Shown here: positions 2,605-56,431 of the stretch, piece after piece
Numbering within the stretch: the stretch's first letter is position 1
Layout: each line of letters starts with the position of its first letter
IMG/VR virus record: IMGVR_UViG_3300047548_000197
Source: an uncultured virus (IMG/VR IMGVR_UViG_3300047548_000197)
Lineage: Duplodnaviria; Heunggongvirae; Uroviricota; Caudoviricetes
Length of the DNA stretch: 60,715 nt
Direction: 5' to 3' (one strand)
Made by a program: the position numbers and the translations under genes
The notes under the pieces: model-generated
Databases searched by the model: none
What the model was told of the DNA's origin: nothing
The model's input: only the letters and a program-made list of their open reading frames with translations

Positions 2605-3117
2605 ATGCACTTACGTGTAACTATTATTTTAGCCATCGCGGCATTGAGTTTATTGACTTTGGTTTCTTCTAATCCACCTAGAGAAAAAATCATAGAAATA
2701 ACTTATAATTCATTAACACAAGAATCACAAAAACAAGTTGATTGTCTTGCACAAAACATTTATTTCGAAGCTGGTCATGAACCACATGAAGGAAAGATGG
2801 CTGTTGCTCTTGTGACACTAAACAGATTACAAGATCCTAGATTTCCAAAAGATATTTGTTCTGTAGTCAAACAAAAGGTAAAATCAACGTGTCAGTTCTC
2901 TTGGTTCTGTGAACGTAAAAAGAACATCAAAGAAGAAGTTTATGATTCTTCTAAACAGATGGCTATATACGTTTATGCTAACTATGAAAAGTTAAAGGAC
3001 ATTACTCATGGAGCGCTGTTCTATCATGCTGATTATGTGAATCCCCGTTGGAGAGGATTAGAAGTGACAACTAAGATAGGTAGACATATTTTTTATAAAG
3101 AAAGAGAACGCATATGA
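2605..3117 (+). CDS. SleB-like cell wall hydrolase (Hydrolase_2)
   Basis: CLAQNIYFEA, VALVTLNR, CQFSW, GALFYHADYV.P.W, IGRHIFY; N-terminal hydrophobic segment; AAGGAG RBS. Confidence 0.92.
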   Translation: MHLRVTIILAIAALSLLTLVSSNPPREKIIEITYNSLTQESQKQVDCLAQNIYFEAGHEPHEGKMAVALVTLNRLQDPRFPKDICSVVKQKVKSTCQFSWFCERKKNIKEEVYDSSKQMAIYVYANYEKLKDITHGALFYHADYVNPRWRGLEVTTKIGRHIFYKERERI

Positions 3118-3671
3118 TGTCCAAAATGAATTTACAATTAAAAGAAGAAACATCTCGCCACTCATTCTTCCTAATGATGGAAGAAGTTAATCTAGCTAGT
3201 TGTAAGCAAGCAGTTGAATGGATTTTCGAAGCAAACTTTGCTGAAGAACGTCCAGAGATGTTAAACTTGTTAATCACAAGTCCAGGTGGTGATTTAAATG
3301 CCGCATTTGCTTTAATTGATGTTATGCGTGGTTCAGCCATTCCAGTTCGTACAATTGGTTTAGGTCAGATTGCTTCTGCTGGTTTAATGATCTTTATTGC
3401 TGGTGATAAGGGGTTGAGACTATTGACACCAAATACTTCTATTCTTTCTCATCAATACTCTTGGGGTGCTATTGGTAAAGAACACGAATTGTTTGCCACT
3501 GTTAAAGAATTTGACTTGACTACCAAGAAAATGATCGCTCATTATAAAAAATGTACTGGTCTAACTGAAGCCAAGATTCGCGAAGTATTATTGCCACCAC
3601 AAGATGTTTGGTTGAGCCCAACTGAGGCAAAGAAACTTGGTTTGTGTGATGATGTTAAAGATTTATCATAA
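3114..3671 (+). CDS. clpP: ClpP-family protease proteolytic subunit
   Basis: ITSPGG, GQIASAG (catalytic Ser), SHQ (His), DVWLSPTEAKKLGLCD. Confidence 0.9.
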   Translation: MMSKMNLQLKEETSRHSFFLMMEEVNLASCKQAVEWIFEANFAEERPEMLNLLITSPGGDLNAAFALIDVMRGSAIPVRTIGLGQIASAGLMIFIAGDKGLRLLTPNTSILSHQYSWGAIGKEHELFATVKEFDLTTKKMIAHYKKCTGLTEAKIREVLLPPQDVWLSPTEAKKLGLCDDVKDLS

Positions 3672-26447: not shown

Positions 26448-29400
26448 ATGATAGATTTCAACACAGAACCGTATAATGATGACTTTGAAGAAGGTAAAAA
26501 GTTTTACCGAATCTTGTATCGCCCTTCATTTGCAGTTCAAGCACGTGAACTTACTCAAATGCAGACTATTCTGCAGAATCAAATTAAGAGACATGGCGAT
26601 GCTATCTTTAAGCAAGGTGCTATGGTCATTCCAGGTCAAGCGTCTGTTGAAACTGTAACACAACAAAACCAAGGTTCTGATTACGTTAAATTAGTTTCCT
26701 TGTACTCTGGCGTTGCAGTCGAAACATTTTTGACTAGCCTTAAAGATCAGATTATCATTGGTTCTAGCGGCGTGAAGGCGCAAGTTATCAAAACTCAAAG
26801 CGCTGAAGAATCTGATCCAACAACATTGTATGTCCGTTATCTAAACTCAGGTAATGATGGACAAACAAAAACATTCTCAAACTCTGAAGTTATTCAGACT
26901 GAAGACGGTGCTTACTCTTTCCAAGCTGCTTCTACTGGAGCAGTCGGTAAAGGTTCTTTGGCCACAGTTAAAGAAGGTGTCTACTACATCAATGGTCACT
27001 TCTGTTTAGTTGAAGAACAAACAATTATTCTAGAAAAATATTCAAATAGCCCAACATACAGAGTTGGTTTGGATGTTAGTGAGAAAGTTATTACTCCAGA
27101 AGAAGACGAAACTCTTTTGGACAATGCACAAAACAGCTACAACTTTGCTGCTCCAGGCGCTCACCGTTACTACATTGAGTTGATTCTTATTAAGAAAGCA
27201 CTTGATGATACAGACGATCAAGACTTTGTAGAATTGATTCGTGTTAACAATGGTACTGTAGACACAATCGTTAAGACAACAGAGTATTCTTTGATTGGCA
27301 AAGAATTGGCTCGTAGAACTTACGACGAATCTGGTGACTACACTGTAAAAGAATTTGCAATCGATATCAGAGAACACCGTAACAACGATCGTGGCGCTTG
27401 GGCTCAGAACACTAGCTATTTGATTGGTGATATTGTTGCACACGGCGGTAACTTATACGTTGCGAAAAACAGCGGCTCATCTGTAACAACTGCTCCAACT
27501 CATACAACTGGAACTGCATATGACGGTCCAGGTTCTACAGGTATCAACTGGGAATACACAGAAGCTCCAGCTTACAACCGTGGTATCTACTTGAATGGCG
27601 ATGAAACAAAACTAGCTATCGGACTAGAAGCTGGTAAGGCATATGTTCGCGGTTATGAGATCGAAAAAGACTCAACAACATATCTTCCAGTATCAAAGTC
27701 CAGAGAATACGCTCAAGCCGTTGACGCTATTATTCCAGCCACTGTTGGTAATTATGTTCTTGTTAAGAACGTGAACAACTTGCCACCAGTTGACTCATAT
27801 GACACAATTCGTTTGTATGATCAAATAACAGGATCTAGCGGTCGCGGTACTGCAGTTGGTAACAATATTGGTACTGCCCGTATTCGCTTTATTGAATGGC
27901 ACACTGGCTTGCCGTTTAACACATCTTCTGTTTATAAACTTGGTCTATTCGATGTTCAAATGAACAACGGGTTTGACTTCAACCGCGATGTAAAATCATT
28001 CTACTACAGCGTTTCTGGAGATCCTCAGTTGAGCTTCTCTGCTGATATTGATCCAGTAACATCTACTCTTTCTGGTTCTGTTAGCGCTTCTGGCGGTACA
28101 CTAACTGGTGTTGGAACATCATTCCAGACAGATCTTTCTGCAGGTGATTACATCGTAGTCGACGGACAGATGGTTCGTATTACTGCTAATCCATCTAGCC
28201 AAGAAGCAGCGACTGTTCCATCTACATTCTCGTTCACAGGCAAAGCATATAGCTTGGCAACAACAGAAATTGTAGAACCAGGAAATAACTCTCTGTTGTT
28301 CCCACTACCATACTACGCTGTTAGATCTATGCGTCAAGCTGGTACTGGTGGTATCAACGACACTAGCTATACATGCTACCAAAAGATTACCCAGACTGCA
28401 ACTGGCACATCAGTTACATTCTCTATCTCTGGTACATTTGCTTCTTACGCAGAAACAGACAACTATATCTTTATTGATAACGATGCCACTGCAGGCGGTG
28501 AAGTATTCACACCAGACTCTGTGACTCCATCTGGTTCTAACTTGACTGTATTGGTTCCATCTGGCAGAGCAAACCGTTCTATCTCTGTTATTGCAGCTGT
28601 TGTTCGTTCTGGTTCTTCTTTCGAGAAAACAAAGACTCTAACAACAGCAACACCAATGACTTTGACTAGCGCTTCTGACGCCAAAGCATCTACTATCTTG
28701 CTAGAACACGCTGACGTGTTTAGATTGATTAGTGTTAAAATGGCTAGTGGTTTTGCGTTTGGTTCAACTCCAGCGCCAGAAGATTACACAACAGACATCA
28801 CAGACTTCTACGAGTTTGATGATGGTCAACGCACAACACACTATGATCTAGGTAGACTAATTCTTAAAGCGTCTTATAGCGCTCCAAACAGCCCAATCAG
28901 AATCCAGTACGAATATTTCGAACATGGTGTTGGTGACTACTTTGATGTTAACTCTTACACAAACATTGATTACAAGTCAATCCCCGCTAACTGCCGCGAT
29001 GCAATTGACTTTAGACCACGTGTAGCCAACAAGAGCGCTGGTTCTACTAGAAACTTTATTGGCACAGGTTCTTCTCTAACATCAATTCCAAAACGTGGTA
29101 TTGACATCCTAGCAGACTTTAGCTACTACCTTGCTAGAAAAGATAAGATTGCTATCGACTTCAACGGTAAATTCTTCTCTGTTGCTGGCGTATCATCTCT
29201 AAATCCAGGTGACCCTCAAGATCCAGCTTTGGGTATGGTGTTGTATAACATCACACTAGAACCATACACATTTGGCACTAAGTCAAACAACGTTAATGTT
29301 CAGAAACTAGAAAACAAGCGTTACACAATGCGCGACATTGGTAAGCTAGAAACTAGAATCAACAACTTAGAATACTACACTTCTCTTTCTCTACTAGAGC

Positions 29401-32400
29401 AAGAAACTCAGTCTCTTAAGATAACAGACGAGTACGGTCTAGACAGAACAAAGAATGGTTTCATTGTAGATAACTTTACTGGTAACAATATCGGTAACGT
29501 CGGCTCTCCTGACTACTACTGTTCTATTGACATGAACAATGGTGAGTTGCGTCCATTCTACACTATGAAAAACGTTAATCTGTTGGAAAAGAACTCTACT
29601 GATATCCAACGCGATAGTTCTAACTACCAGATCAATGGTGATGTTATCACATTGCCTATCATTGCAAACAAAGTTTTGGTCAAGCAAGAATATGCTTCTA
29701 GACTAGAAAACATTAACCCATTTGCAATCTTTACATTCTTGGGTAACGTTAGCATCAACCCACCTTCTGATGATTGGTTTGAAACTAACAAAGTTGCTCC
29801 AGACATCATTAATGTAGAAGGTAACTACAACTTGATTCGCGAGTTGGCAATCAAGTCTGGCACTATCCAAGAAAACGGTTATGGTACTGTTTGGGGTGCT
29901 TGGAAAGATGAGTGGATTGGTCAACCAATTTCTCAAGGTACACGTAGCTACTCTGCTGATCGTCGTAGTGGCGATGGCGGTGCTGCCCTTGATGCAAAAT
30001 TCGGTGTTGGTCCAGAAGCAGGTGGCTGGGCTATCCGTCAAGTTGTAAGTGAAGTTTTGGCTACACCAGTTGGTCAATCAAGAACTGGCATCAGAACTAA
30101 GTTAGCGACAAAGACTGATTATCAACAAGTTGGTGAACGTGTTGTTTCTACTGCAACAATTCCTTACATCCGTTCTAGAAATATTCTAGTTCAGGTAAAG
30201 GGTATGAAGCCAGAAACACGTTTCTATCCATTCTTTGATGACATCGACATTTCTTCTTTTGTTACACCATCTATTAAAATGGTGTACACAGCTGGAGTTG
30301 GTGTATTTGACACTGACACAAACGTTGGTGGCGCTTCTTCTGAAACAAAGCGTAGAATTAACGGTGATTCTCAAGTTTGCTTGAACCGTGGTGATGTTAT
30401 TACCAACTCTCTAGAAACTGCTTCTGCCGTAGTTATTAGCAAGTCTATCGATCCAGAAACAGATACATTAACTCTAGAATTGGCTAACGTTAAAGGTACA
30501 TTTGCAGTTGGGCAGTCATTCTCTGGTTCTGTTTCTGGAGCAACAGGTACTGTTGTTTCTGTATCAACTCCAACTACTCTGGTTTCTAACAAGAACGGTG
30601 AAGTTAACTTCTTGTTCAATATCCCTAACACAGATTCAGTTAGATTCCGCACTGGTTCTAGAGAATTGAAGTTGGTAGACACTCCAACTGTTAACGGACA
30701 ATTCACATCTCGTGGTCGTGGTATGTACAGAGCACAAGGTGTTCTAGAGACTAAACAATCTATCATCAACGCTGTTCGTAACGCAGAGTTGGTTAAAGAA
30801 GTTATTGGTCCAAACGACGATCCAGAAGCTAGACAAACAATCTACCAAACATCTGAGCGCGTTGTTTCAGACACAGGTTGGTACGATCCACTTGCTCAAT
30901 CATTCTTGGTTCAGCAAAAGGGTGGTGCTTTCTTGACAAAGATTGATGTGTTCTTTGCAACTAAAGATGTTGCAGTGCCAGTTTCTCTTGAAATCAGAGA
31001 GATGGTAAATGGATATCCAGGTAAGAATATTCTTCCATTCTCTAGAGTTACTCTAAAGCCAGAAGTTGTTAACGCTCCAGTTGCTGGCGAAGACCCAGTT
31101 GCTGCTGGTTACACTGCTGTTACTCTAGACAATGTATCATACGCTGACTACAATACAGCAACATCGTTTACATTCGAAACTCCTGTTTACGTTCAAGACA
31201 ACGCTGAATACTGTTTTGTTCTACTGTCTGATTCAAACAACTACAAGGTTTGGATCTCTAACGTAGGTGATACGATTCCTGGAACTAGCAGAACTATTTC
31301 TGAGCAGCCTTATGCTGGTGTTATGTTTAAATCACAAAACGCTTCTACATGGACAGCTGATCAGAACCAAGATATCAAGTTCTCTATTTACAGAGCACAA
31401 TTTGACACTAGCGTTATCGGTAACGTAGAGTTTGTTAACGACGTTCTACCATACGTTGAGATCGAAAACGATCCATTCCAGACTGTTGTAGGTTCTACAA
31501 CAGTTCGTGTATGGCACAAAGACCACGGTATGACTGTTAGCTCTAGAGTTGTTATCGACAGCGTTGCTTCTGCAATCAACGGTATTCCAGCATCAGAGTT
31601 CAACAAAGAACACTTGATTTCAAACGTTGATATGAATTCTTATACTATCGCAACTACTACTGCAGCTACATCTACTGGATATGCTGGTGGTCTGGGTGTT
31701 AGAGCCACTGCAAACATTCAATACGACGTATTGGTTCCATCTGTTCAGATGCAAACATTCTCTGATACAAACGCTTCATTCTCAGTGAAGACTACATCAG
31801 GTAAGTCTGTTGATGGTGGCGAAACTCCTTATGTGATTGATACAGGATTCTCTCCTTGCTTGGTTAAGGACAATAACTACTTCTACACTCCAAGAGTTAT
31901 TTCTTCTGAACCAAACGAAAACAGCTTGATGTCTGGTAACAAGTCATTGACATTCTCTGCTCGTTTGCAAACTTCTAACGATGCAGTGTCACCAGTTATT
32001 GATACTGCTCGTACAAGTTTGATTGCTATCTCTAACAAGATCAATAGCCCATCAGAGTCTAATGTCAACGTATCAGCGTTAGACGTTAAGCAGATTTTCT
32101 CTCACACAGACGGTGTGTTTAACTTTACCGCTGGTGGTACTATAACATCTACAGACGCTGAAGTTAGAACTGCAATGGCTATTGCTTCTATCGGCAAGTA
32201 CATCACTATTGCTGGCGCTACAACTGGTGCTAACAACAAGACTGTTCTAATCACTGGTTACGCAGACGATGGCACAACTGGCACCTTGACTCTAGACACA
32301 ACTTTCACTGCTGAGAGTTCTGTTAGCGGTACAACTGTTTCAATCAGAGAACTGTTCTTGGATGATATTTCACCTAACGGCAGCTCATCTCTAAGCAAGT

Positions 32401-32729
32401 ACGTTACTTCTGCAGTCAAGTTGGAAAACGTATCTACTAATGTTAGAGTTAAGTTTGCTGCAAATATCCCTAACTCTTCAGATGTACTTGTATACTACAA
32501 GACTTGTGTTGGCGACAAGACTAAATTAACAACAACTAAATATACACTGGCAACACCAGATTCCAATTTAGTTAAAGTTCAGAATGGAAATGAATCGTTC
32601 TACGACTGTGATTACACTATCGATAACATGGCTCCATTCGACAATATCGTTGTTAAGATTGTAATGAAGTCAACAAATAGTTCAGCCGTTCCTAGAATTA
32701 AAGATTTAAGAGTTATTGCTTGTGCGTGA
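26448..32729 (+). CDS. Large VrlC-like (DUF4815-type) baseplate/tail structural protein
   Basis: PYNDDF, QARELTQMQTILQNQ, APGAHR, RRTYDESGDY, YTMRDIGKLE.RI.NLEYYTSL, DPLAQSF, PRIKDLRVIA. Confidence 0.85.
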   Translation: MIDFNTEPYNDDFEEGKKFYRILYRPSFAVQARELTQMQTILQNQIKRHGDAIFKQGAMVIPGQASVETVTQQNQGSDYVKLVSLYSGVAVETFLTSLKDQIIIGSSGVKAQVIKTQSAEESDPTTLYVRYLNSGNDGQTKTFSNSEVIQTEDGAYSFQAASTGAVGKGSLATVKEGVYYINGHFCLVEEQTIILEKYSNSPTYRVGLDVSEKVITPEEDETLLDNAQNSYNFAAPGAHRYYIELILIKKALDDTDDQDFVELIRVNNGTVDTIVKTTEYSLIGKELARRTYDESGDYTVKEFAIDIREHRNNDRGAWAQNTSYLIGDIVAHGGNLYVAKNSGSSVTTAPTHTTGTAYDGPGSTGINWEYTEAPAYNRGIYLNGDETKLAIGLEAGKAYVRGYEIEKDSTTYLPVSKSREYAQAVDAIIPATVGNYVLVKNVNNLPPVDSYDTIRLYDQITGSSGRGTAVGNNIGTARIRFIEWHTGLPFNTSSVYKLGLFDVQMNNGFDFNRDVKSFYYSVSGDPQLSFSADIDPVTSTLSGSVSASGGTLTGVGTSFQTDLSAGDYIVVDGQMVRITANPSSQEAATVPSTFSFTGKAYSLATTEIVEPGNNSLLFPLPYYAVRSMRQAGTGGINDTSYTCYQKITQTATGTSVTFSISGTFASYAETDNYIFIDNDATAGGEVFTPDSVTPSGSNLTVLVPSGRANRSISVIAAVVRSGSSFEKTKTLTTATPMTLTSASDAKASTILLEHADVFRLISVKMASGFAFGSTPAPEDYTTDITDFYEFDDGQRTTHYDLGRLILKASYSAPNSPIRIQYEYFEHGVGDYFDVNSYTNIDYKSIPANCRDAIDFRPRVANKSAGSTRNFIGTGSSLTSIPKRGIDILADFSYYLARKDKIAIDFNGKFFSVAGVSSLNPGDPQDPALGMVLYNITLEPYTFGTKSNNVNVQKLENKRYTMRDIGKLETRINNLEYYTSLSLLEQETQSLKITDEYGLDRTKNGFIVDNFTGNNIGNVGSPDYYCSIDMNNGELRPFYTMKNVNLLEKNSTDIQRDSSNYQINGDVITLPIIANKVLVKQEYASRLENINPFAIFTFLGNVSINPPSDDWFETNKVAPDIINVEGNYNLIRELAIKSGTIQENGYGTVWGAWKDEWIGQPISQGTRSYSADRRSGDGGAALDAKFGVGPEAGGWAIRQVVSEVLATPVGQSRTGIRTKLATKTDYQQVGERVVSTATIPYIRSRNILVQVKGMKPETRFYPFFDDIDISSFVTPSIKMVYTAGVGVFDTDTNVGGASSETKRRINGDSQVCLNRGDVITNSLETASAVVISKSIDPETDTLTLELANVKGTFAVGQSFSGSVSGATGTVVSVSTPTTLVSNKNGEVNFLFNIPNTDSVRFRTGSRELKLVDTPTVNGQFTSRGRGMYRAQGVLETKQSIINAVRNAELVKEVIGPNDDPEARQTIYQTSERVVSDTGWYDPLAQSFLVQQKGGAFLTKIDVFFATKDVAVPVSLEIREMVNGYPGKNILPFSRVTLKPEVVNAPVAGEDPVAAGYTAVTLDNVSYADYNTATSFTFETPVYVQDNAEYCFVLLSDSNNYKVWISNVGDTIPGTSRTISEQPYAGVMFKSQNASTWTADQNQDIKFSIYRAQFDTSVIGNVEFVNDVLPYVEIENDPFQTVVGSTTVRVWHKDHGMTVSSRVVIDSVASAINGIPASEFNKEHLISNVDMNSYTIATTTAATSTGYAGGLGVRATANIQYDVLVPSVQMQTFSDTNASFSVKTTSGKSVDGGETPYVIDTGFSPCLVKDNNYFYTPRVISSEPNENSLMSGNKSLTFSARLQTSNDAVSPVIDTARTSLIAISNKINSPSESNVNVSALDVKQIFSHTDGVFNFTAGGTITSTDAEVRTAMAIASIGKYITIAGATTGANNKTVLITGYADDGTTGTLTLDTTFTAESSVSGTTVSIRELFLDDISPNGSSSLSKYVTSAVKLENVSTNVRVKFAANIPNSSDVLVYYKTCVGDKTKLTTTKYTLATPDSNLVKVQNGNESFYDCDYTIDNMAPFDNIVVKIVMKSTNSSAVPRIKDLRVIACA

Positions 32730-32955
32730 TAGACTGAAGGTTGCTGGTCATGATAGCCTAGTTAGGGATGTCTCTAACGGGGCTATCATAAATACTGATA
32801 AGACCGAAGTTCAAAGGTATCTACAGAGAAGAGAAGAAGCCAGAATCCAAAAGGAAAAGATGGATCAAATTTCTCATAATACCAAAGAGATAAATAATAT
32901 AAAGAATGAATTGCAAGAGATAAAATCTTTGATTCTCCAAATTTTGCAAAAATAA
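32716..32955 (+). CDS. Small conserved coiled-coil hypothetical protein (start possibly GTG 32722)
   Basis: KVAGHDSLVRD..GAIINTD motif, typical follower of VrlC-like genes. Confidence 0.7.
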   Translation: MLVRDRLKVAGHDSLVRDVSNGAIINTDKTEVQRYLQRREEARIQKEKMDQISHNTKEINNIKNELQEIKSLILQILQK

Positions 32956-32966
32956 AGGATCCTTAA

Positions 32967-34154
32967 ATGGCAGTTATTACATTAAGAGGTACTAAAGGAA
33001 GTCCGCTGACTAACGCTGAAGTCGATGCAAACTTTAGTAACCTGAACAACGAATTAGCCACAAAATTAACAGCTGTTGATTATAATGCAGCTGATATCTT
33101 AACTAAACTTAAAACAGTTGACGGTAGCGGTTCTGGTTTAGATGCCGACTTACTAGATGGTTATAGCGCGTCTGTATTGCTACCAGCTGGTGCTGATAAA
33201 AGCTCTGCAGTAGTTCGTGATGCTTCAGGTAACTTTGAAGCCAACGTAATCACAGCTGCTAATTTCTCAGGTAAGTTTTCTGGCGAAGCAGCTATCACCA
33301 GCGGTTTGATCCAAGGTATCACAGACTTGGCAATCGCAGATGGTGGTACTGGCTCATCTACATCAGCTGGCGCTAGAACTAACTTGGGTCTAGCCATTGG
33401 TTCTGATGTGCAAGCATGGAATCTAGAGTTAGATGCCCTAGCTTCTACAACATCTGCAGCCAATACATTACCTTACTATACAGGTCTTGGTACTGCTGAT
33501 ACTACTAGCTTGACACCATATGCCAGAACTTTGTTAGACGATGGTGATGCAACTACTGCGCGTGCCACTCTTGGTCTAACAATCGGTACGCACGTTCAAC
33601 CGTACGACTCTGATTTATCTGCGCTATCATCTCTTCCAGGGACTGGTATCGTAGTTAGAACATCAGATGGCGCTGCCACAGTTAGATCTGTAGTTGCAGG
33701 TAGTGGTATTTCTATATCAAACGGTGATGGTGTTTCTGGTAACCCAACAATCAATGCAAACGTAACATCTGTTCAAGGTATGACAGGCGCTGTTACTGTT
33801 AACGTACCTGTAACATCTGTTCAAGGTATGACAGGTGCTCTAACTGTTACTAACATCGGCGGTAACGCTGGTTCTGCTTCTAGCGTTGCATGGGGTAACG
33901 TGTCAGGTCGCCCTGGACACCTTTCTCAGTTTACCAACGACTTGGGTAACTATGGTGCTTGGGTTCCGCATAATACTAAACACAACGACCAAGGATGGAC
34001 ATGGGGTCGCTCAGGTGGCGCTGGTAACCACGCACACCAACCTGGAAACCACCATTCAAACAACTGTTGGTCTAGATTACACTTAGATACTGGTAGTTAT
34101 ATGGATCCACACCACCATTTTACTAACTGCAGAAACTGTAACTGTAACTGCTAA
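32967..34154 (+). CDS. Tail fibre protein with His/Asn/Cys-rich C-terminal tip
   Basis: [45 protein letters not shown] repeats; ends NCRNCNCNC; late promoter ATAAATA at 32890. Confidence 0.85.
33762..33835 (+). repeat. Exact 26-bp direct repeat GTAACATCTGTTCAAGGTATGACAGG, 48-bp period
   Basis: Copies at 33762-33787 and 33810-33835. Confidence 0.9.
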
Positions 34155-34166
34155 TAGGAATCAGAA

Positions 34167-35144
34167 ATGAAATATGTAAAACATAAACAACATATTAGAA
34201 GATACGCTGATCCAGCGATGAAATTTATAGATGATGCTTGGGTTCTAGCTCATGTCGAAGCCGCTAAAATTGAAGGTGTTGATTACTCAGTCATTGAAAA
34301 TAGCCAGACATTGTTCGCTGCGCACGAGGGCGCACCAGTAAATTTCAAATATAACATCACAAAAGATGATAGTGTATTGACTATCATCTTAAGAAATGAA
34401 ACTGAAAATAGACAGCTTGTTGATATTAGTATTGATCTAAACAATTTTGCTAATCTAGCTGGGCAATGTGTTTATACTATCAATCCTACTACGCTAAAGA
34501 AAAATATAGAAGAAAATCGTAGTGAATGGATGACATCTATTTCTACTGAAATAGAAACACCATTCTTACCGAAAGAACCAGAAAATATCAATAAAGTTGA
34601 TATCATCAATGCATATGGTTCTACTTTGGCAACAAAGTCTAAGGTAATGTATGCTCCTGAAAACGTGTTTTCTTTCTTTGTGACCAAAGACAACCCAACT
34701 CCAGAAGATATAGTTTTGGTTTTGATTGTTCCTCAAGAAATTGAAAATATAAGCGAAGATCTTCCATATGATGATCTAAACGGTAATCCATACGCTGGTG
34801 TTGATACAACTGGTTGGGCAACACACAGTGTAGATGTTGATACAGAACTAGAATTTGGTGGAGTTGTAGGCAAACTGCACGAAAGCCTAATGGACGCTAT
34901 TGATATCTTGAACGTAACTCAATCAGAAACAGCAGTCACCGTAACTGTTCAAGCAGCTGATGTTGATTATATCTACCTAGAACAAGTCTCTGGTTTCTTG
35001 GCAAAAACTAAGATTCCTGTAGTGAACGGCACTGCTGAATTCAAAGTGTCAACTATTGGTCTAGATGCTGGAGATGAGATCGTCACAAAGATCGGTTATA
35101 AATATTGGTCTAACCACCGAACATTAACTTATACATTAGTTTGA
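34167..35144 (+). CDS. Hypothetical protein, possible fibre-associated/chaperone with beta-rich C-terminal domain
   Basis: AGGA RBS, directly follows fibre gene; no recognised motif. Confidence 0.6.
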   Translation: MKYVKHKQHIRRYADPAMKFIDDAWVLAHVEAAKIEGVDYSVIENSQTLFAAHEGAPVNFKYNITKDDSVLTIILRNETENRQLVDISIDLNNFANLAGQCVYTINPTTLKKNIEENRSEWMTSISTEIETPFLPKEPENINKVDIINAYGSTLATKSKVMYAPENVFSFFVTKDNPTPEDIVLVLIVPQEIENISEDLPYDDLNGNPYAGVDTTGWATHSVDVDTELEFGGVVGKLHESLMDAIDILNVTQSETAVTVTVQAADVDYIYLEQVSGFLAKTKIPVVNGTAEFKVSTIGLDAGDEIVTKIGYKYWSNHRTLTYTLV

Positions 35145-35146
35145 AC

Positions 35147-35166
35147 AAGGGGTCTTATGACCCCTT
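35147..35166 (+). other. Intergenic hairpin (weak terminator or processing/stability element)
   Basis: AAGGGGTC-ttat-GACCCCTT with no long U tract. Confidence 0.6.
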
Positions 35167-35182
35167 ATAACATGGAATAGAT

Positions 35183-36565
35183 ATGGCTATATTTGAAATT
35201 AAAGCATGGGATCCCAGCGATCAAAAACACAAAAAGTTCTCATACGATACTGAGGTAAACATTATCTCTGATCACAGCGGTGAGAATATTTTTCTAGACT
35301 CTGTTACCACACCAACCAAACAAGTTGCTAAAATCGTGTCAGGTAAAGGTGATCTAAAGATCATCAAAATCCAACTTGGTCTTTCTTGCAACTTTTCATG
35401 CGAATACTGCAATCAAAGATTTGTACCTCATGCAGATTCAACAAACCCAGAAGACGTATCTCCATTTGTCAATAACATGAAGACATGGTTCGATGGTGGA
35501 CCAGATGGTTCTGGTAAAGGCACTAGAATAGAGTTGTGGGGTGGTGAGCCATTTGTGTATTGGAAAACTATGAAACCACTGGTTGAAGAGATTTTCAAAA
35601 AATACCCTGAAGTTGAATTTTCAGTTATAACTAACGGCAGTTTGTTGGACCAAGAAAAGATTTTATGGTTAGACAAGTATAACTTTTCTATTTCAGTTTC
35701 ACACGATGGTCCAGGGCAGTTTGTCAGAGGTCCAGACCCACTACAAGACCCAGAATCTAAAGAAGCTATTATTCAAACTTACAAAAAGTTTGCTCCCAAA
35801 GGTAAGTTTAGCTTCAATGCAATGATCAATGCTAAGAACATTAGCCGAGCTTCTATTGAAGAATATTTCATTAAATTTATTTCTGAAAATATTAGTCATG
35901 AGTATACACAACACTTGGTTATCGGAGAAGGCACGTTCGTAGATGCATACGATGAAGGTGGTGCTCAAAATTCCTTGTTGGATGAAGAACAAGAAGTTCA
36001 GTTTAGAAACCTTTCATTGAGTGAGTATCGCACGGGTAAAGTAACCAAGTTTATCACTTCTCACGACAAAGTGACTGATTTTATCAAGTCCGTTGCTACA
36101 GGTGTTAGACTAGACTCAGTCACACAAAAGTGTGGTATGGACAAGAAAGAAAATATCGCAGTAGACTTAAATGGTAATGTTTTGACCTGCCAGAATGTCA
36201 GCGCTGTTTCTACAAACCCATCTGGTATTTCTCATCTAGTTGGTAATGTATCAGATCTTAACAATGTCAACCTAAAAACTTCTACGCATCTAAGTGAACG
36301 CGAAGAGTGTCCAAAGTGCCCAGTAGTTCATATCTGTAAAGGTGCTTGTATGTTCTTGACTGGCGACTTGTGGGAGATCTCTTGTAATAACGCATTTAGC
36401 GATAACATCGTGGCATTCAGCGTTGCATTTGAGCAGATGACAGGATGTATCCCAGAGTACATCGATGGTCCATTGAGACAAGACCGAAAAGATATCTATT
36501 GGTGGACTCATGGTAAGCCAGAAACTAAAAGAAAGAATAAAGTTATTCCAATTCTTGCAGCATGA
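35183..36565 (+). CDS. Radical SAM protein with SPASM domain (peptide/protein maturase type)
   Basis: CNFSCEYC, WGGEP, ITNG, VSHDG; SPASM Cys set CG..GNVLTC..CPKCPVVHICKGAC..C. Confidence 0.93.
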   Translation: MAIFEIKAWDPSDQKHKKFSYDTEVNIISDHSGENIFLDSVTTPTKQVAKIVSGKGDLKIIKIQLGLSCNFSCEYCNQRFVPHADSTNPEDVSPFVNNMKTWFDGGPDGSGKGTRIELWGGEPFVYWKTMKPLVEEIFKKYPEVEFSVITNGSLLDQEKILWLDKYNFSISVSHDGPGQFVRGPDPLQDPESKEAIIQTYKKFAPKGKFSFNAMINAKNISRASIEEYFIKFISENISHEYTQHLVIGEGTFVDAYDEGGAQNSLLDEEQEVQFRNLSLSEYRTGKVTKFITSHDKVTDFIKSVATGVRLDSVTQKCGMDKKENIAVDLNGNVLTCQNVSAVSTNPSGISHLVGNVSDLNNVNLKTSTHLSEREECPKCPVVHICKGACMFLTGDLWEISCNNAFSDNIVAFSVAFEQMTGCIPEYIDGPLRQDRKDIYWWTHGKPETKRKNKVIPILAA

Positions 36566-36873
36566 GCTTTATAAAACAACACCTGATTGAAATATCTCAA
36601 TACCCAAGAGAGATGGGCAGGGACGGTAGAGAAGAGTGGTTTTATATGAAAGACTACTTTTTCTACGACTCGAATACCAAAAAATATGGGCACCGAGATA
36701 CGGTTATACCAGTTTCTTCTTTTATAAATAAAGAAGAGATACCAGAACCTGAATTTATGAAAGAACTTATAAATAAAAAGGTTTATGTTATAAAACGAAT
36801 AATGAATTTCCAAGACTACACGCAAAAGTGGGTCTTTGACACAACAAAGCTAGGAGAAAGCAAAAATGACTAA
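36562..36873 (+). CDS. Hypothetical protein
   Basis: ATGA-coupled to radical SAM gene, overlaps next gene. Confidence 0.6.
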   Translation: MSFIKQHLIEISQYPREMGRDGREEWFYMKDYFFYDSNTKKYGHRDTVIPVSSFINKEEIPEPEFMKELINKKVYVIKRIMNFQDYTQKWVFDTTKLGESKND

Positions 36874-37810
36874 GCACGTAAAATGGGTTATCGCTCACGA
36901 GCCTATTGGCTTATTCTTAAAAGTAGCAGAGCGTTTCGCTAAAGAAGTAAACGAGAAAACAAACGGTGCATTTGACATCGAAGTTCTTTCTTTGACTGAC
37001 TACACAAACAAGTATAATGGCGGTCAAAAGATCACCAAAGATGCGTTAATGAAGTTGGTCGATAATGGCACTATCGAAATGAGCCATATCTACACTACTT
37101 GGTTAGCTGACTACAACAAAGACTTACATGCTCTAGATCTACCATTCTTGTTCCGCGATCACGCCCATGCGGATGCTGTTCTAGAAGGTGAGATTGGCAC
37201 TGAACTATTGGCTGGTGTTGCCAAGAATTCTAACACACACGCTATGTCTTTCACTTACTCTGGTGGATACCGTGTTGTTCCAGCTAACTTTAAGGCTGAT
37301 ACTGTAGAAGCATGGCAAGGTCGTACTGTTCGTACTAGCCGTTCTCCAGTTGCTGTAGAGACTTTTAAGTTGTTAGGCGCTGAACCAAAAGAACACATTG
37401 CTCTAGAAGAAATGAACGCTGCAGCAGATGCAGGTTTGATCGAAGCTGGTGAATCCACTTACGTTCGCGTGTTCCCACTAGATCAACACAAGTCTTTCAA
37501 AGTTGTTAACGATACAGCACACAGCTTGTTCTTGACATCTATCATCGTCAACCAAGACTTCTTTAAACAGTTCGATGCTGAAACTCAAGAGATCTTGTCT
37601 ACTGCTGCGTTCAATGCTGCTCGCGCTGAACGTCGCGAATCTGTTGCAGACATCCCAAACATCTTGGCTCAATGTAAAGCTGAGGGTGTTGAAGTTGTTA
37701 AGATGACTGTTGAACAAGAAGCACGTTTTAAACAAGTTACTGCACCAGTCTATGATAAGTTTGCAGACTACTTTACTACAGGTCTAGTTGAAAAGATTCA
37801 ACTACATTAA
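36866..37810 (+). CDS. TRAP transporter substrate-binding (DctP-like) protein lacking a signal peptide
   Basis: FAKEVNEKTNG, LDLPFLFRDHAHADAVLEGEIG, GRTVR, FKLLGAEP, TAHSL; N-terminus has no hydrophobic leader. Confidence 0.85.
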   Translation: MTKHVKWVIAHEPIGLFLKVAERFAKEVNEKTNGAFDIEVLSLTDYTNKYNGGQKITKDALMKLVDNGTIEMSHIYTTWLADYNKDLHALDLPFLFRDHAHADAVLEGEIGTELLAGVAKNSNTHAMSFTYSGGYRVVPANFKADTVEAWQGRTVRTSRSPVAVETFKLLGAEPKEHIALEEMNAAADAGLIEAGESTYVRVFPLDQHKSFKVVNDTAHSLFLTSIIVNQDFFKQFDAETQEILSTAAFNAARAERRESVADIPNILAQCKAEGVEVVKMTVEQEARFKQVTAPVYDKFADYFTTGLVEKIQLH

Positions 37811-37827
37811 TCTGAAGTGATAAATAC

Positions 37828-37850
37828 AAGGGAGCTTCGGCTCCCTTTTT
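37828..37850 (+). terminator. Intrinsic terminator with CUUCGG loop
   Basis: AAGGGAGC-ttcg-GCTCCCTTTTT. Confidence 0.85.
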
Positions 37851-37864
37851 CGTTTAGGAATATT

Positions 37865-38905
37865 ATGAAACCAGAGATTCTATACTATAACACACACGAA
37901 GTGCCTAGAATTATTCTAGAGTCTAAACAAAAGATTCTACCATTTCTAGCCAATAATTATTCAGATGACTTGTTAAACGCTTACAATAAACATGGGCTTA
38001 ACAAGCACAATATGATCTATGATAGATCTCAGAGTATTCCACACTATCTTAACATAAAGGCATCGGCACATCCGATGCTGGCGAGAGATGACAATTTCTC
38101 TATGTCATTTTTCGAGGTTTGCGAACGAAGAGCGAAAGAACTTGTTGATAGAAACAAAAACATTTATGTTATGTGGTCTGGTGGAATCGACAGCACCTTT
38201 ATTTTATTTTTGTTAAACAAGTATGCTGCAAGGGGTCAAGTTAAAATCTACGGTACTTACAATTCTATAATCGAGTCTGGTGACTTGTTTGATAGAAGGT
38301 TACGACATGAATTTGAATATGATATAGAAACCCCAACAGATAGCCAATTTGCATATAAACAAACAGATTGTATTTTTGTTAGTGGTATGTGTGGCAATCA
38401 ATTGTTTGGTCCAACAGATGATTTCTTTTCTAATGTTCCTAACGCTATGTTTCACCACACACTGGGTACTCCAGAGACTATCTACGAGGGAATCCAAGGT
38501 AACATAGATCAAGAGTTGTTAGACTTCTTAGAACCTATGATTAAGAACTCTCCAAGAAAGTTAGAAACCGTCAATGACCTAAGATGGTATTGTATTTTTA
38601 ACTTAGACTGGTATACCGCTGTGTACGAACATAGAATACTGGCAGAGCAAAGTCGCGCTAAACGAGTCGTTCCTTTCTTCGACACGAATGAGTTTCAACA
38701 GTGGGCTATAACAACCAAAGAACCATTCACTAAATTCAAAGGTAACCCTAATACTCATAGATGGCAGATGAGGCAGATTTTAGATGAGCATTTTGATGAA
38801 GCTCACTATGCTTGGAATAAAGAAAAGAAAATATCAAACTTCAACGTCTATAGACCACAGTGGCTGTTCTTGCTAAACGATTTCTACAATGTTCTTGATG
38901 ACTAA
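37865..38905 (+). CDS. PP-loop ATP pyrophosphatase (asparagine synthase C-terminal/adenine nucleotide alpha-hydrolase-like)
   Basis: VMWSGGIDST, FVSGMCGNQLFG, PFF....FQQWA; AGGA RBS before ATG 37865. Confidence 0.8.
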   Translation: MKPEILYYNTHEVPRIILESKQKILPFLANNYSDDLLNAYNKHGLNKHNMIYDRSQSIPHYLNIKASAHPMLARDDNFSMSFFEVCERRAKELVDRNKNIYVMWSGGIDSTFILFLLNKYAARGQVKIYGTYNSIIESGDLFDRRLRHEFEYDIETPTDSQFAYKQTDCIFVSGMCGNQLFGPTDDFFSNVPNAMFHHTLGTPETIYEGIQGNIDQELLDFLEPMIKNSPRKLETVNDLRWYCIFNLDWYTAVYEHRILAEQSRAKRVVPFFDTNEFQQWAITTKEPFTKFKGNPNTHRWQMRQILDEHFDEAHYAWNKEKKISNFNVYRPQWLFLLNDFYNVLDD

Positions 38906-56068: not shown

Positions 56069-56232
56069 TGTATAAAGTTACATACTACACATCTGGGTCA
56101 ATGGTGGCTTTTAAGTGGTTTAACACGTTTGGTGAAGCTAGTCAGTTTTCACTAACTGTTAGAACTGGAGACGTCATTGAAATTAAATTATACAAGGAGA
56201 TTCCTGATGGACAATCAACACAAACAAATTAA
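56068..56232 (+). CDS. Small hypothetical protein (54 aa, not in ORF track)
   Basis: TGATG-coupled; MYKVTYYTSGSMVAFKWFNTFGEASQF... Confidence 0.6.
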   Translation: MYKVTYYTSGSMVAFKWFNTFGEASQFSLTVRTGDVIEIKLYKEIPDGQSTQTN

Positions 56233-56431
56233 AGGCTATCGTGATCTTTCTCAAGATGAGATTAATCTTATGAATGAGATCAAAGCCAAAGGTGCTGAAC
56301 TTGGAGAATTGGTTGAACGTCTACGCTCACAACCTACTCTGGATCAGCGTTGGATTAGTATCGGTGCAACAGACTTACAAACTGGTCTGATGGCTCTTGT
56401 TCGTGGTGTAGCACAACCAACATCATTCTGA
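56207..56431 (+). CDS. acb2: Anti-CBASS cyclic-nucleotide sponge Acb2 (T4 Vs.4 family)
   Basis: MDNQHKQIKGYRDLSQDEI..MN.IK and RW..IG.TDLQTG.MALVR.VAQP.SF; AAGGAG RBS. Confidence 0.9.
   Translation: MDNQHKQIKGYRDLSQDEINLMNEIKAKGAELGELVERLRSQPTLDQRWISIGATDLQTGLMALVRGVAQPTSF

Follow-up and report, generated by a model that had tools for sequence, protein, structure and literature searches.

A fiber-enzyme cluster among the tail genes of a T4-like phage

The window, a 60,715-nt stretch of DNA from an uncultured virus, derives from a T4-like phage and carries the cluster studied here among its tail genes. Its ORF list contained six co-directional plus-strand ORFs, as the initial annotation had described them and at the same coordinates. 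They encode a 395-aa tail-fiber-like protein (32967..34154), a 325-aa protein (34167..35144), a 460-aa radical SAM enzyme whose SPASM domain is complete with seven Cys (35183..36565), a 103-aa protein (36562..36873), a leaderless DctP-family (TRAP-type) binding protein of 314 aa (36866..37810), and a PP-loop ATPase with an Asn-synthetase-like C-domain shape (listed as 362 aa, 37817..38905; more likely 346 aa, 37865..38905). A 2093-aa DUF4815/VrlC-like gene (26448-32729) and then a small structural gene (32716-32955) precede the cassette, and gp13/gp14/gp15/terminase genes follow it. The domains assigned in that annotation were also recovered: the enzyme matched Radical_SAM (PF04055, 33.2 bits; cut-off 29.5) and SPASM (TIGR04085, 33.7; cut-off 27), the DctP-like protein matched PF03480 (150.8 bits, 6.6e-44), and the SGGIDST loop of the PP-loop protein was invariant in 17 relatives.

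The fiber ends in a conserved Cys tail

The fiber protein matched phrog_697 (9.2e-16) plus seven 'tail fiber' families of PHROG, and its end was read as ...NNCWSR...[14 protein letters not shown]. The codons of the NCRNCNCNC tail at its C terminus, where the enzyme is proposed to act, occupy 34125..34151 on the plus strand, and His-rich stretches lie directly before the tail ([15 protein letters not shown]). The protein consists of a conserved shaft (residues 1 to ~300), a hypervariable distal part, and, at the very end, N-C-x-C-N-C, which is invariant. Across 26 aligned relatives, N390, C391, and C393 were invariant and N394 and C395 nearly so, while the ~70 residues ahead of the motif were hypervariable. 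Only the Cys tail stays fixed in an otherwise variable fiber end.

Cys-tailed fiber-like proteins ranged from 81 to 891 aa and carried three to eight overlapping motifs at the very end. Among 101 distinct tails, the x residue was Asn in 75.8%, Asp in 9.6%, and Ala in 6.2% of positions (91.6% together), an N-x-x-C motif was present within each N-C-N-C stretch, and the last Cys was the exact protein end in 68 tails. In JWF-type fibers, a self-cleaving Hint domain begins right after the Cys run (Pfam, 47.5 bits; cut-off 32.1), so that cleavage would expose the same kind of C-terminal end. At two loci (L214 and L215), a Peptidase_S74 chaperone domain ended in the Cys motif; since such domains are usually cleaved off, this position does not fit the reading of the motif as a mature tip.

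The Cys tail tracks the SPASM enzyme across phages and prophages

The enzyme matched phrog_1802 at 2.7e-68. Its CX3CX2C motif (C69/C73/C76) and seven SPASM cysteines (C317, C336, C376, C379, C385, C389, and C401) were invariant across 13 relatives. Relatives 38-65% identical to it were then fetched from phages and prophages. Of the 155 fetched loci with an enzyme ORF, 112, among them the window's contig (L003), were eligible in having 4500 nt or more of upstream DNA. At 104 of the 112 eligible loci, a fiber-like ORF upstream of the enzyme and on its strand ended in (xC)n, with n of at least 3; two others had an internal Cys run capped by a Hint domain and three a shorter NCxC end. No tail of any kind was found at the remaining three eligible loci, which counts against modification of the tail by the enzyme. 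As background, (xC)n ends occurred in 4 of 2471 opposite-strand ORFs of the fetched loci and in none of their 1420 other genes. Many of the loci are kin, so that locus counts are not independent events; when the enzymes were dereplicated at 90% identity, the tail was kept in 70 of 77 clusters. Chance would hardly produce such a Cys tail.

At a wider scale, the enzyme matched 2589 proteins at E<=1e-10, and at least 590 of 596 candidate stretches from IMG/VR and 210 of 293 from GTDB genomes were confirmed. The pairing ranged over T4-like phages, siphovirus JWF, Ralstonia phage RSP15, and prophage-like regions of Burkholderiales and Alphaproteobacteria, and the order fiber, unknown, enzyme was common to the cultured phages JWF and RSP15. 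Three or four small Cys-tailed proteins stood in tandem ahead of a single enzyme at L051, L060, and L203, resembling multi-precursor peptide clusters. Thus the link between Cys-tailed fiber and SPASM enzyme, suspected from this one phage, is kept far beyond it, and within the family of 38-65% identity homologous enzymes did not, as a group, occur independently of (NC)n-type fibers. No Cys tail was found within 8 kb of more distant enzyme relatives (35% identity; L210-212). In the literature, we did not find the pairing of a Cys-tailed phage fiber with a radical SAM enzyme described.

One to three 2OG-Fe(II) oxygenases lay between fiber and enzyme in 73 of the 155 loci, and their presence in this slot fits a tailoring-cassette layout. 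Radical SAM enzymes are oxygen-sensitive, and the occurrence of oxygen-dependent oxygenases in many cassettes counts against modification of the tail by such an enzyme.

The 325-aa protein gave no match in Pfam, PHROG, or NCBIfam. A family HMM found it in 121 of 164 loci, and it is the third core member beside fiber and enzyme. Its predicted model (pLDDT 77.5) best matched the fold of intimin (1f02_I; Z 9.4, rmsd 2.5 over 80 residues), by which residues 242-325 are predicted to form an intimin/invasin-like Ig domain; no recognized fold was found for its N-terminal part.

The 103-aa, DctP-like, and PP-loop proteins look like a separable add-on

The DctP-like protein also matched NF037995 (114.7; cut-off 50) and DctP chains of the PDB, down to 7.7e-20. 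Its residue 22 aligned with residue 49 of chain 4p47, indicating that it begins at the first conserved strand without a hydrophobic leader. It resembles TRAP DctP binding proteins in its strong PF03480 match but differs in lacking a leader and any DctQ/DctM partner: these families had no match among the window ORFs scanned, and the remaining ORFs matched structural PHROGs. Arg156, presumably the carboxylate-binding position of the DctP family, is present in 17 of 19 relatives from phages. The 103-aa gene travels with the PP-loop gene, and its product appears to be a private partner of the PP-loop enzyme. Its predicted model, though confident (pLDDT 91.6), had no fold match: Foldseek gave none at E<=0.001, and the highest VIA Z was 3.1.

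Family matches of the PP-loop protein were weak (QueC-like, PAPS reductase, LarE). An archaeal Asn-synthase-related cluster of the Atlas matched its structure at TM 0.60, and nitrile synthetase was the only PDB match (E 0.0035). The listed start of this gene probably needs correcting. The ATG at 37865 (346 aa) is a more likely start than the GTG at 37817 (362 aa), because the Atlas record begins there, AGGA lies 8 nt upstream, and a UUCG-loop GC-rich hairpin with a U-run occupies 37828-37847 on the plus strand between the DctP and PP-loop genes (terminator scan, sequence, and RNA fold; -15.8 kcal/mol, z -2.12). This hairpin looks terminator-like or RNA-stabilizing. In its SGGxDST loop and Asn-synthase-like shape, the protein is akin to AsnB-like amide ligases such as CmoY, lasso cyclases, and beta-lactam synthetase, but it differs from them in lacking a glutaminase domain. 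CmoY is a phage AsnB homolog reported to activate a carboxyl group by adenylation and to join glycine to it (PMC12783734). A tblastn search of 50,697 phage records (E<=1e-5) gave no match to the PP-loop protein, which indicates that it is not a close relative of CmoY.

The first reading of the locus had joined all six genes into one RiPP-like pathway maturing the fiber. In its full form, the PP-loop enzyme would adenylate a fiber carboxylate (the C terminus or Asp), either following the radical SAM reaction or in parallel with it, the activated group would be amidated, cyclized, or ligated, and the DctP-type and 103-aa proteins would be substrate-binding partners. The tail-SPASM half of that reading was supported, whereas membership of the DctP and PP-loop genes looks doubtful, as the trio and the enzyme module also occur apart. 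That the modified end is the tip by which the mature virion binds its receptor, as the first reading had it, is no more than possible. Among 28 distinct eligible PP-loop-anchored loci, the enzyme adjoined in 22, which favors a single pathway, and was missing from the flanks in 6, although these contigs are fragments ~10% complete; one trio-only locus had NrdA/B, glutaredoxin, DUF2061, NifU_N, and Fe-S_biosyn genes as neighbors. Conversely, six T4-like relatives (L020-22, L030, L033, L034) carried fiber, 325-aa gene, and enzyme without the trio, and a PP-loop gene (L224) lay far from the enzyme module (L030) on a single 165-kb contig. The trio was also absent from JWF, RSP15, and the prophages, and distant PP-loop relatives were paired with TctC-type binding proteins in unrelated contexts.

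Gene arrangement speaks for one pathway at several loci. The trio is interleaved inside the fiber module in L004, L036, L182, L203, L208, and L220 (between 325-aa gene and enzyme in L004, L036, and L220), and PP-loop and 103-aa genes stand beside the enzyme in other orders and without DctP in L214, L215, and L220. Arg156 would be suited to binding a carboxylate, for instance the C terminus of a protein. Trio parts (31 loci) and 2OG oxygenases (73 loci) never occurred together among the 155 enzyme-anchored loci, as though a single slot could take one or the other, but this exclusion runs along phylogenetic lines, and at L210 a PP-loop gene occurs together with a 2OG oxygenase. Fusions of the 103-aa protein to other proteins did not turn up, which is weak evidence against the single pathway. 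Since the trio occurs without the enzyme and the enzyme without the trio, a role of the trio in fiber maturation is only possible; we give an additional action of the trio on the fiber a probability of about one in three and regard the complete six-gene pathway as doubtful. The 103-aa protein, DctP, and PP-loop ATPase are separable and look like an add-on.

In the window, the 103-aa gene shares its first 4 nt with the end of the radical SAM gene and its last 8 nt with the beginning of the DctP gene. These overlaps couple the trio translationally to the enzyme, favoring the six-gene pathway and counting against keeping the trio apart.

Related maturases suggest a probable thioether

The best NCBIfam matches of the enzyme were peptide maturases (PapB, nif11, and DynA), whereas its scores stayed far below the equivalog cut-offs. 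PapB of freyrasin (NF047865) led at 1.1e-17 over residues 60-390, but at 64.3 versus a cut-off of 340; anSME reached 42.1 versus 349. QhpD, a SPASM radical SAM enzyme of quinohemoprotein amine dehydrogenase maturation, forms Cys to Asp/Glu cross-links within a protein subunit; its model (TIGR03906) matched at 6.7e-13, but with a score of 48.1 versus 453, and it acts on a subunit of a periplasmic enzyme rather than on a fiber. PapB and the SCIFF ranthipeptide enzyme CteB share SPASM architecture and Cys-rich substrates with this system, and those substrates are leader-containing peptides recognized via a RiPP recognition element (RRE). No RRE was detected in the enzyme or its neighbors (Pfam; 103-aa model without fold match). 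In a PDB profile search, 8vpo, which we take to be the entry linked with a paper on cyclopropyl synthases, was the best-scoring solved chain, followed by CteB (5wgg, 2.7e-9). The rank of 8vpo counts against a settled thioether chemistry for the enzyme family.

The nearest precedents are CrpC/CrpA and NxxcB. CrpC of Methanococcus voltae, as described in PMC13692751, is a radical SAM enzyme with seven SPASM cysteines that installs ranthionine thioethers on CrpA, a full-size Cys-rich protein encoded next door, possibly helped by its paralogous neighbor CrpB; in that paper's interpretation, a set of seven cysteines keeps one iron of an auxiliary cluster open to a substrate Cys. The window's enzyme likewise has seven SPASM cysteines and a full-size protein with a Cys-rich end encoded nearby. 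CrpA, however, is a functionally uncharacterized cellular protein of an archaeon rather than a virion part, CrpC has a predicted RRE, and the CrpC family model (TIGR04463) reached 26.6 versus 525. NxxcB, a streptococcal radical SAM RiPP enzyme of the NxxC subfamily, joins the Cys sulfur to the beta-carbon of the upstream Asn in N-x-x-C and tolerates Ala, Gln, and Asp besides Asn, according to PMC9389541. The N-C-N-C runs of fiber tails, with N/D/A at 91.6%, match this acceptor range. NxxcA is a short secreted one-motif peptide, unlike a fiber-like protein with its several motifs, and no NxxcB model was among the enzyme's NCBIfam matches.

The enzyme could instead act on the Cys tail by another chemistry, which we regard as rather unlikely: conversion of Cys to formylglycine (as by anaerobic sulfatase maturases), carbon-carbon cross-links, epimerization, or preparation of a metal or iron-sulfur site, with alternate Cys side chains facing the axis of a trimeric fiber. 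T4 fibers have His-x-His metal sites, to which such a tail can be likened, CxC repeats are typical metal ligands, and the His-rich stretches precede the tail in the window's fiber. The lack of any equivalog assignment and the presence of anSME and 8vpo (a cyclopropyl-synthase entry by its listing) among the nearest solved relatives also leave room for it. Against it, the SPASM cysteines number seven, not the eight by which both clusters of anSME are fully ligated, and Asn/Asp/Ala at alternate positions better match thioether acceptors than a pure metal site. Those SPASM enzymes with Cys-rich substrates that have been characterized to date give thioethers, according to PMC13692751.

It is very improbable that adjacency does not reflect an enzyme-substrate relation, the enzyme targeting the 325-aa protein, a small molecule, or the host from a shared recombination-tolerant slot: fiber-gene neighborhoods are accessory-gene hot spots, the 325-aa protein is nearly as constant a neighbor as the tail, and enzyme relatives at 35% identity have no Cys-tailed neighbor, but the tail motif itself, not just the fiber gene, tracks the enzyme far above background, across myo-, sipho-, and prophage backgrounds and changed gene orders, and at some loci tandem Cys-tailed proteins precede one enzyme.

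Proposed modification of the fiber end

From the observed gene order, domains, conserved tail, and co-occurrence, we favor with moderate confidence a conserved module of fiber, 325-aa protein, and enzyme that modifies the (Asn/Asp/Ala-Cys)n tail of the fiber, the trio being a separate kit. The SPASM enzyme would act post-translationally on the fiber's own C-terminal tail, most likely joining Cys sulfur to a carbon of neighboring Asn/Asp/Ala in a thioether. The 325-aa protein, with its predicted adhesin-type Ig domain, may be a fiber-bound structural partner or an adaptor presenting the tail to the enzyme. The trio would consist of a protein that binds carboxylates, a ligase that works by adenylation, and a small partner; in this T4-like lineage it would have been inserted into the fiber cassette and be expressed together with it. 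The thioethers would staple the distal end of the fiber in a form that resists redox change and proteases. Because the pairing of tail and enzyme recurs in many phages, these phages probably modify their fiber ends chemically.

Organization of the fibre cassette in the window

The window holds the late structural region of a T4-like myovirus, with baseplate hub and wedge genes, a PAAR protein gene and the gene of a 2093-aa DUF4815/VrlC-like protein lying 5′ of the cassette, and with gp13-, gp14- and gp15-like genes lying 3′ of it, followed by those for terminase, sheath, tube, portal, prohead protease, scaffold and major head protein. The ORF listing of the window bore out the six co-directional ORFs and the coordinates that the initial annotation had claimed. 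All on the + strand, these encode a predicted tail fibre with a Cys-rich end (32967-34154, 395 aa), a core partner (34167-35144, 325 aa), the radical SAM/SPASM enzyme (35183-36565, 460 aa) and three further proteins, hereafter the trio: a small protein (36562-36873, 103 aa) whose ORF shares 4 and 8 nt with the ORFs on either side, a DctP-family protein (36866-37810, 314 aa) and a PP-loop protein (37817-38905, 362 aa as first read). The PP-loop gene is present, but its annotated start at 37817 is probably wrong, and the gene probably begins at ATG 37865. A hairpin with a U-run at 37828-37847, whose GC-rich stem has eight perfect base pairs and closes on a UUCG loop, lies in the 54-nt gap after the DctP gene, which argues for the later start. 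Judged from its sequence, the hairpin may be a terminator-like or RNA-stability element, and it would raise DctP expression above that of the PP-loop gene.

The T4 late-promoter motif TATAAATA matched three times in the window, all within the cassette, versus 3.87 matches expected by chance, and was not taken as evidence. Sigma-70 promoter-like sites were likewise at chance level in a scan of the window (39 observed versus 40.2 expected), and a nucleotide search of phage records with the cassette returned matches of 50-72 nt only. Apart from the cassette, the window encodes an 84-aa protein with an Acb2/Tad1 hairpin domain (56177-56431; PF24729, 2.2e-20), a family of anti-CBASS/anti-Thoeris nucleotide sponges. 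Its early/middle region, distant from the cassette, encodes a ClpP-like protease (3114-3671; PF00574, 1.2e-27) and a 2OG-Fe(II) oxygenase (838-1308; PF13640, 1.3e-9) of the kind found within the fibre cassette of other phages.

Cys-tailed fibres recur next to the radical SAM enzyme

A translated search of phage records detected full-length relatives of the enzyme in two cultured phages, Achromobacter phage JWF (42% identity) and Ralstonia phage RSP15 (48%). In JWF, the genes run from the fibre-like gp028 through a 240-aa unknown to the enzyme, and gp028 holds ...NCNCDCNCNCSC with a Hint domain starting immediately after it. The RSP15 order is a "side tail fiber" ending ...NTNCQCGN, a 271-aa protein that resembles the window's 325-aa protein at its C terminus, a 288-aa unknown, the enzyme and a VrlC-like gene.

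The enzyme family comprised 2589 proteins at E<=1e-10 out of 7271 candidates. Using a 13-member enzyme alignment, we fetched loci from IMG/VR (the best 80 of at least 590 confirmed stretches, at least 596 having matched) and from GTDB genomes (the best 80 of 210 confirmed stretches), the latter matches falling mostly in Burkholderiales (Limnohabitans, Polynucleobacter, Paraburkholderia) and some in Alphaproteobacteria. The co-occurrence sample consisted of 164 loci (numbered with L), 155 of which had an enzyme ORF and 112 of which had at least 4500 nt upstream, including the window's own contig, L003. A locus was scored as tailed when an ORF of at least 75 aa, located upstream on the same strand, carried an (x-Cys) run of three or more in its last 30 residues. 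Such an ORF was found in 104 of the 112 eligible loci, so that the co-occurrence of fibre tail and SPASM enzyme, which the initial annotation had proposed to check, was confirmed; the same test was positive for 4 of 2471 opposite-strand ORFs and for none of 1420 other genes. Among the remaining loci, a Hint domain caps an internal run in two (L001 and L116; L130 has a like internal run), three had a shorter NCxC end (L002, L009, L016) and three had no tail (L077, L094, L122); immediately upstream of the enzyme, L122 has a stretch rich in Asn and Cys that carries an acidic extension. A stricter count on a greedy gene set gave 93/112, a lower figure because some fibres were masked by spurious ORFs that overlapped them. 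As the loci are related to one another, the pairing counts do not represent independent events; after single-linkage dereplication of the enzymes, most clusters still contained a tailed neighbour (70/77 at 90% identity, 32/36 at 70%, 6/8 at 55%). The pairing persisted across different virus types and gene orders, and the core module of fibre, 325-aa protein and enzyme recurs.

Other arrangements of radical SAM genes were also encountered. Two alphaproteobacterial prophage-like loci (L133 5764-8161 and L134 5666-8164) carry two tandem radical SAM paralogues of 340-362 aa and 468-478 aa, which come after a Cys-tailed fibre and a 325-aa homologue. Ralstonia phage RP12 (L240, 493-7218) has three radical SAM genes with 24% identity to the window's enzyme, and upstream of them are genes for a 126-aa His/Tyr/Trp-rich protein without Cys and a 296-aa protein that is a weak BFVD structural match to the 325-aa protein. 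This distant cluster may be a different protein-modifying cassette.

The Cys tail is a conserved terminus of fibre-like proteins

The fibre ORF matched one structural and seven tail-fibre PHROG families, and its gene sits between baseplate/VrlC-like and neck genes. Cys-tailed carriers ranged from 81 to 891 aa, and 122 of the 126 distinct ones joined one similarity cluster of fibre-like proteins, and the idea of a tail carried by unrelated protein bodies was rejected. Among 101 distinct tails, the run was 3-8 repeats long, the residue alternating with Cys was Asn at 75.8%, Asp at 9.6% and Ala at 6.2% of positions, and the last Cys was the exact protein end in 68. In an alignment of 26 T4-like relatives, the first ~300 residues were conserved, the following ~70 were hypervariable and the terminal N-C-x-C-N-C was fixed, with N390, C391 and C393 invariant and N394 and C395 nearly so. 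Both the invariance and the composition of the tail are evident from these proteins, and the N-x-x-C motif occurs in the tails many times over.

Variants of the tailed gene were found in several loci. In L051 (4549-5473), L060 (4371-5542) and L203 (5932-6543), one enzyme is preceded by three or four small proteins in tandem (92-167 aa), all with an (N-C)n end, an arrangement that, by analogy, resembles multi-precursor peptide clusters. A Hint domain begins one residue past the run in three loci (47.5 bits versus a cut-off of 32.1 in L001, weaker in L116 and L130); Hint domains self-cleave, and such cleavage would turn the internal run into a new C terminus. In L203 (5160-5681), L123 (3025-3930) and also L120, a conserved extension starting G/S-K-I-I-C-x-K-L-Y comes after the (N-C)n run. 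This extension had no Pfam match and may, like the Hint domain at the corresponding place in JWF-type fibres, cap the run or serve in processing. Furthermore, L214 (4416-5342) and L215 (4561-5466) encode fibres with a Peptidase_S74 intramolecular chaperone domain, ending C-x-N-C-S-C-G-x-K. The adjoining genes, whose order is reversed, encode a radical SAM enzyme of 47% identity, a PP-loop protein and a 103-aa homologue. In these fibres, the C-x-N-C-S-C motif is shorter than the usual tail and lies at the end of the Peptidase_S74 domain, a position that fits a modified mature tip less well.

The enzyme belongs to the SPASM maturases but to no named family

The radical SAM and SPASM assignments of the initial annotation both stood. 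PF04055 scored 33.2 bits (cut-off 29.5), and the CX3CX2C motif, the site of the SAM-binding [4Fe-4S] cluster, is kept, C69, C73 and C76 being invariant in 13 and in 22 relatives. TIGR04085 scored 33.7 (cut-off 27). The SPASM pattern for two auxiliary clusters is CX9-15GX4C, a gap, CX2CX5CX3C, a gap and C, and in the enzyme family seven SPASM Cys are invariant, namely C317 (then G331x4C336), C376x2C379x5C385x3C389 and C401. The cluster-binding motifs are therefore intact.

The top curated (NCBIfam-type) matches were PapB (1.1e-17), nif11-type (4.6e-17), DynA, HxsB, QhpD-type, CcpM, anSME and SCIFF models of peptide and protein maturases, all of them far under the equivalog cut-offs; an NxxcB model was not among the family matches. 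The enzyme scored 64.3 bits with the PapB-family ranthipeptide maturase model NF047865, which requires 340, and 42.1 bits with the anaerobic sulfatase maturase model TIGR03942, which requires 349.45; it is a member of neither, and by its sequence it would at best work like a PapB-family maturase. A profile search of solved structures matched 8vpo (5.1e-16), CteB 5wgg (2.7e-9) and anSME 4k37 (2.1e-8), with only the radical SAM core aligned; 8vpo is presumably, from its listing, tied to a paper on cyclopropyl synthases. Since the family matches fall under their cut-offs and the structural alignments cover the core only, homology puts the enzyme among the SPASM maturases and leaves its chemistry unfixed. 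Because no equivalog threshold was reached, the enzyme lies, on sequence grounds, outside every named maturase family (NxxcB being compared by description) and appears to define, within the SPASM maturases, a family of its own whose substrate class would also be new. No PqqD or RRE Pfam match was found in the enzyme, in the 325-aa protein or in the 103-aa protein.

An adhesin-type partner and accessory oxygenases

The 325-aa protein matched no family in Pfam, PHROG or NCBIfam. With an HMM built from its relatives, homologues were detected in 121 of 164 loci, where the gene mostly comes right behind that of the fibre, and conservation was limited to the last ~90 residues. Its model (pLDDT 77.5) contains an intimin/invasin-type Ig domain at residues 242-325, best matched by 1f02_I (Z 9.4, rmsd 2.5, 80 residues) and by invasin 1cwv_A (Z 8.6); the N-terminal part had no fold match, and BFVD gave uncharacterised phage proteins. 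The position of the gene and the adhesin-type domain suggest that the protein is a fibre-associated structural partner, or else an adaptor or chaperone. A Cys-tailed fibre, an Ig-domain partner and a SPASM enzyme form a conserved three-gene module.

One to three further proteins lie between fibre and enzyme in 73 of the 155 enzyme-anchored loci, and representatives of them matched the 2OG-Fe(II) oxygenase families PF13759 and PF13640. Parts of the trio occur in 31 enzyme-anchored loci, and no locus of that set has both trio parts and oxygenases; this split tracks phylogeny. L210, from the PP-loop-anchored set, has both the PP-loop gene and a 2OG oxygenase.

A leaderless DctP protein, a PP-loop ATPase and a small protein

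The third protein of the trio had been called an SGGIDS ATPase and the second a signal-less DctP, and both calls held. For the DctP-like protein, PF03480 scored 150.8 (cut-off 23.4; 6.6e-44) and NF037995 114.7 (cut-off 50), and TIGR00787 stayed under its cut-off (114.6 versus 175). The protein has no leader and begins at the first conserved strand, and no DctQ or DctM partner was matched among the window ORFs scanned; therefore, it shares the DctP fold, but in this window it is no part of a transporter. Seventeen of 19 relatives keep Arg156, at what we take to be the carboxylate-binding position of the DctP family. Conservation of the leaderless DctP far exceeds that of its neighbours: in phages whose radical SAM enzymes are only 55-65% identical, the DctP N termini are nearly identical, which suggests strong constraint or recent exchange.

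In the PP-loop protein, S121, G122, G123, D125, S126 and T127 are invariant in 17 relatives, and the loop lies within weak N-terminal matches to models of QueC-like, PAPS reductase and LarE proteins. The AsnB-like reading of this protein survived in part: the invariant SGGxDST supports the PP-loop superfamily, but the asparagine synthetase B/lasso cyclase family PF00733 was not supported, with no Pfam match at E<=0.01. Asn_synthase, NAD_synthase and QueC families are represented among its Atlas structure neighbours. The only link to the asparagine synthetase family is its Asn-synthase-like shape, with an Atlas TM of 0.60 to an archaeal Asn-synthase-related cluster, a value under the Atlas bar. 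A tblastn search found no match in 50,697 phage records. Given this and the missing Pfam Asn_synthase match, the protein is not a close relative of CmoY, a phage DNA-modifying ligase (PMC12783734). The 103-aa protein was modelled (pLDDT 91.6) as a beta-rich domain with one long helix, for which there was no solved-fold counterpart (best Z 3.1), a result that speaks neither for nor against a PqqD-like recognition element; no fused forms were found among longer proteins, which is weak evidence.

Association of the trio with the fibre module

That the trio also acts on the fibre is, in our judgement, doubtful. Its genes overlap or abut the enzyme gene and each other in the window, and in L004, L036, L182, L208, L203 and L220 the trio, or the PP-loop and 103-aa genes, even lie between the 325-aa gene and the enzyme, whereas six VrlC-like-bearing T4-like relatives (L020-22, L030, L033, L034) have the fibre, the 325-aa gene and the enzyme with no trio within 3-7 kb, and JWF, RSP15 and the prophages have no trio. 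Conversely, 28 distinct PP-loop-anchored loci had sufficient flanking sequence and a PP-loop homologue that is close; the enzyme adjoins in 22 of these and is absent from the flanks of the other six, three of which keep DctP and the 103-aa protein (L176, L194, L213) and three the PP-loop gene only (L209, L222, L224). On one 165-kb contig, the enzyme module (L030) and a PP-loop gene (L224) are far apart. Moreover, one trio-only locus lies among NrdA/B, glutaredoxin, DUF2061, NifU_N and Fe-S_biosyn genes, and distant PP-loop relatives adjoin TctC-type binding proteins. A search for the enzyme in five trio-only contigs found none, these being 0-11% complete fragments of genomes that may carry it elsewhere.

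In L196 (9051-9732; also L176 and L200), which carry the trio without the enzyme, NifU_N (IscU-type, 2.6e-54) and Fe-S_biosyn (IscA-type, 4.4e-16) genes directly follow the PP-loop gene, and a DUF2061 membrane protein gene precedes the trio. The neighbours in trio-only contigs could hint at a sulfur- or Fe-S-related role of the trio.

Proposed thioether maturation of the fibre tip

To our knowledge, radical SAM/SPASM cross-linking mostly concerns small peptide natural products, with very few proteins so far. QhpD is one protein-acting case; it is also near the enzyme, of which PapB is the best model match and CteB a close structure match. CrpA is another protein cross-linked by this chemistry (PMC13692751). 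CrpC/CrpA and NxxcB/NxxcA are the known systems nearest to the proposed one. CrpC and CrpA likewise involve a protein substrate but come from an archaeal source. For NxxcB and NxxcA, compared with the phage proteins by description, motif and acceptor range are as in the fibre tails, but the NxxcA substrate is a peptide.

The fibre tail is, with good probability, the substrate of the enzyme. We propose that the enzyme would bind the tail, that a tail Cys would ligate the open iron of an auxiliary cluster, an arrangement discussed for CrpC in PMC13692751, and that the 5′-deoxyadenosyl radical would take a hydrogen from a neighbouring Asn, Asp or Ala. Formation of a C-S bond would follow, hydrogen abstraction and then C-S bond formation being the mechanism that PMC9389541 describes for NxxcB and sactisynthases. 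Repeated along the overlapping N-x-x-C motifs, these steps would yield a compact thioether ladder at the fibre end. The bridges may lie inside a single chain or link the chains of a trimer, and the end may touch the receptor, the 325-aa protein or a metal. Taken as a whole, we consider this mechanism reasonably likely; that the product is a thioether is an even call.

A broader proposal is that several phage enzymes modify the phage's own virion in a post-translational pathway. The radical SAM thioether ladder on the terminal (Asn-Cys)n tail, possibly linking the three chains of the fibre, would then be finished by lineage-specific sets acting on the same end: 2OG oxygenases in some phages and, in the T4-like lineage, a PP-loop ligase fed by the cytoplasmic DctP-type protein together with the 103-aa partner. 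The product would be a chemically unique, covalently locked fibre terminus with a role in adsorption or particle stability. That all these parts hold together is quite improbable.

Returning to the three-gene module, the literature searched, with subscription-only papers and bioRxiv supplements outside its scope, gave no description of a radical SAM enzyme acting on a phage fibre. No such description was found in the literature on JWF and RSP15 either, a term search of PMC9959647 giving 0 matches. A cyanophage paper (PMC12801897) mentions a phage "radical SAM maturase", which it regards, in a different setting, as a gene for antibiotic synthesis. If enzymatic modification of the fibre tail is correct, a large family (2589 proteins; at least 590 IMG/VR stretches) would cross-link a structural protein of the virus particle, and the recurrent orphan "radical SAM" annotation in phage genomes would be accounted for. 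Enzymologists would gain a family of protein-sized substrates that are easy to express and contain a simple repeat, and tail-fibre biology would gain an enzymatic maturation step.
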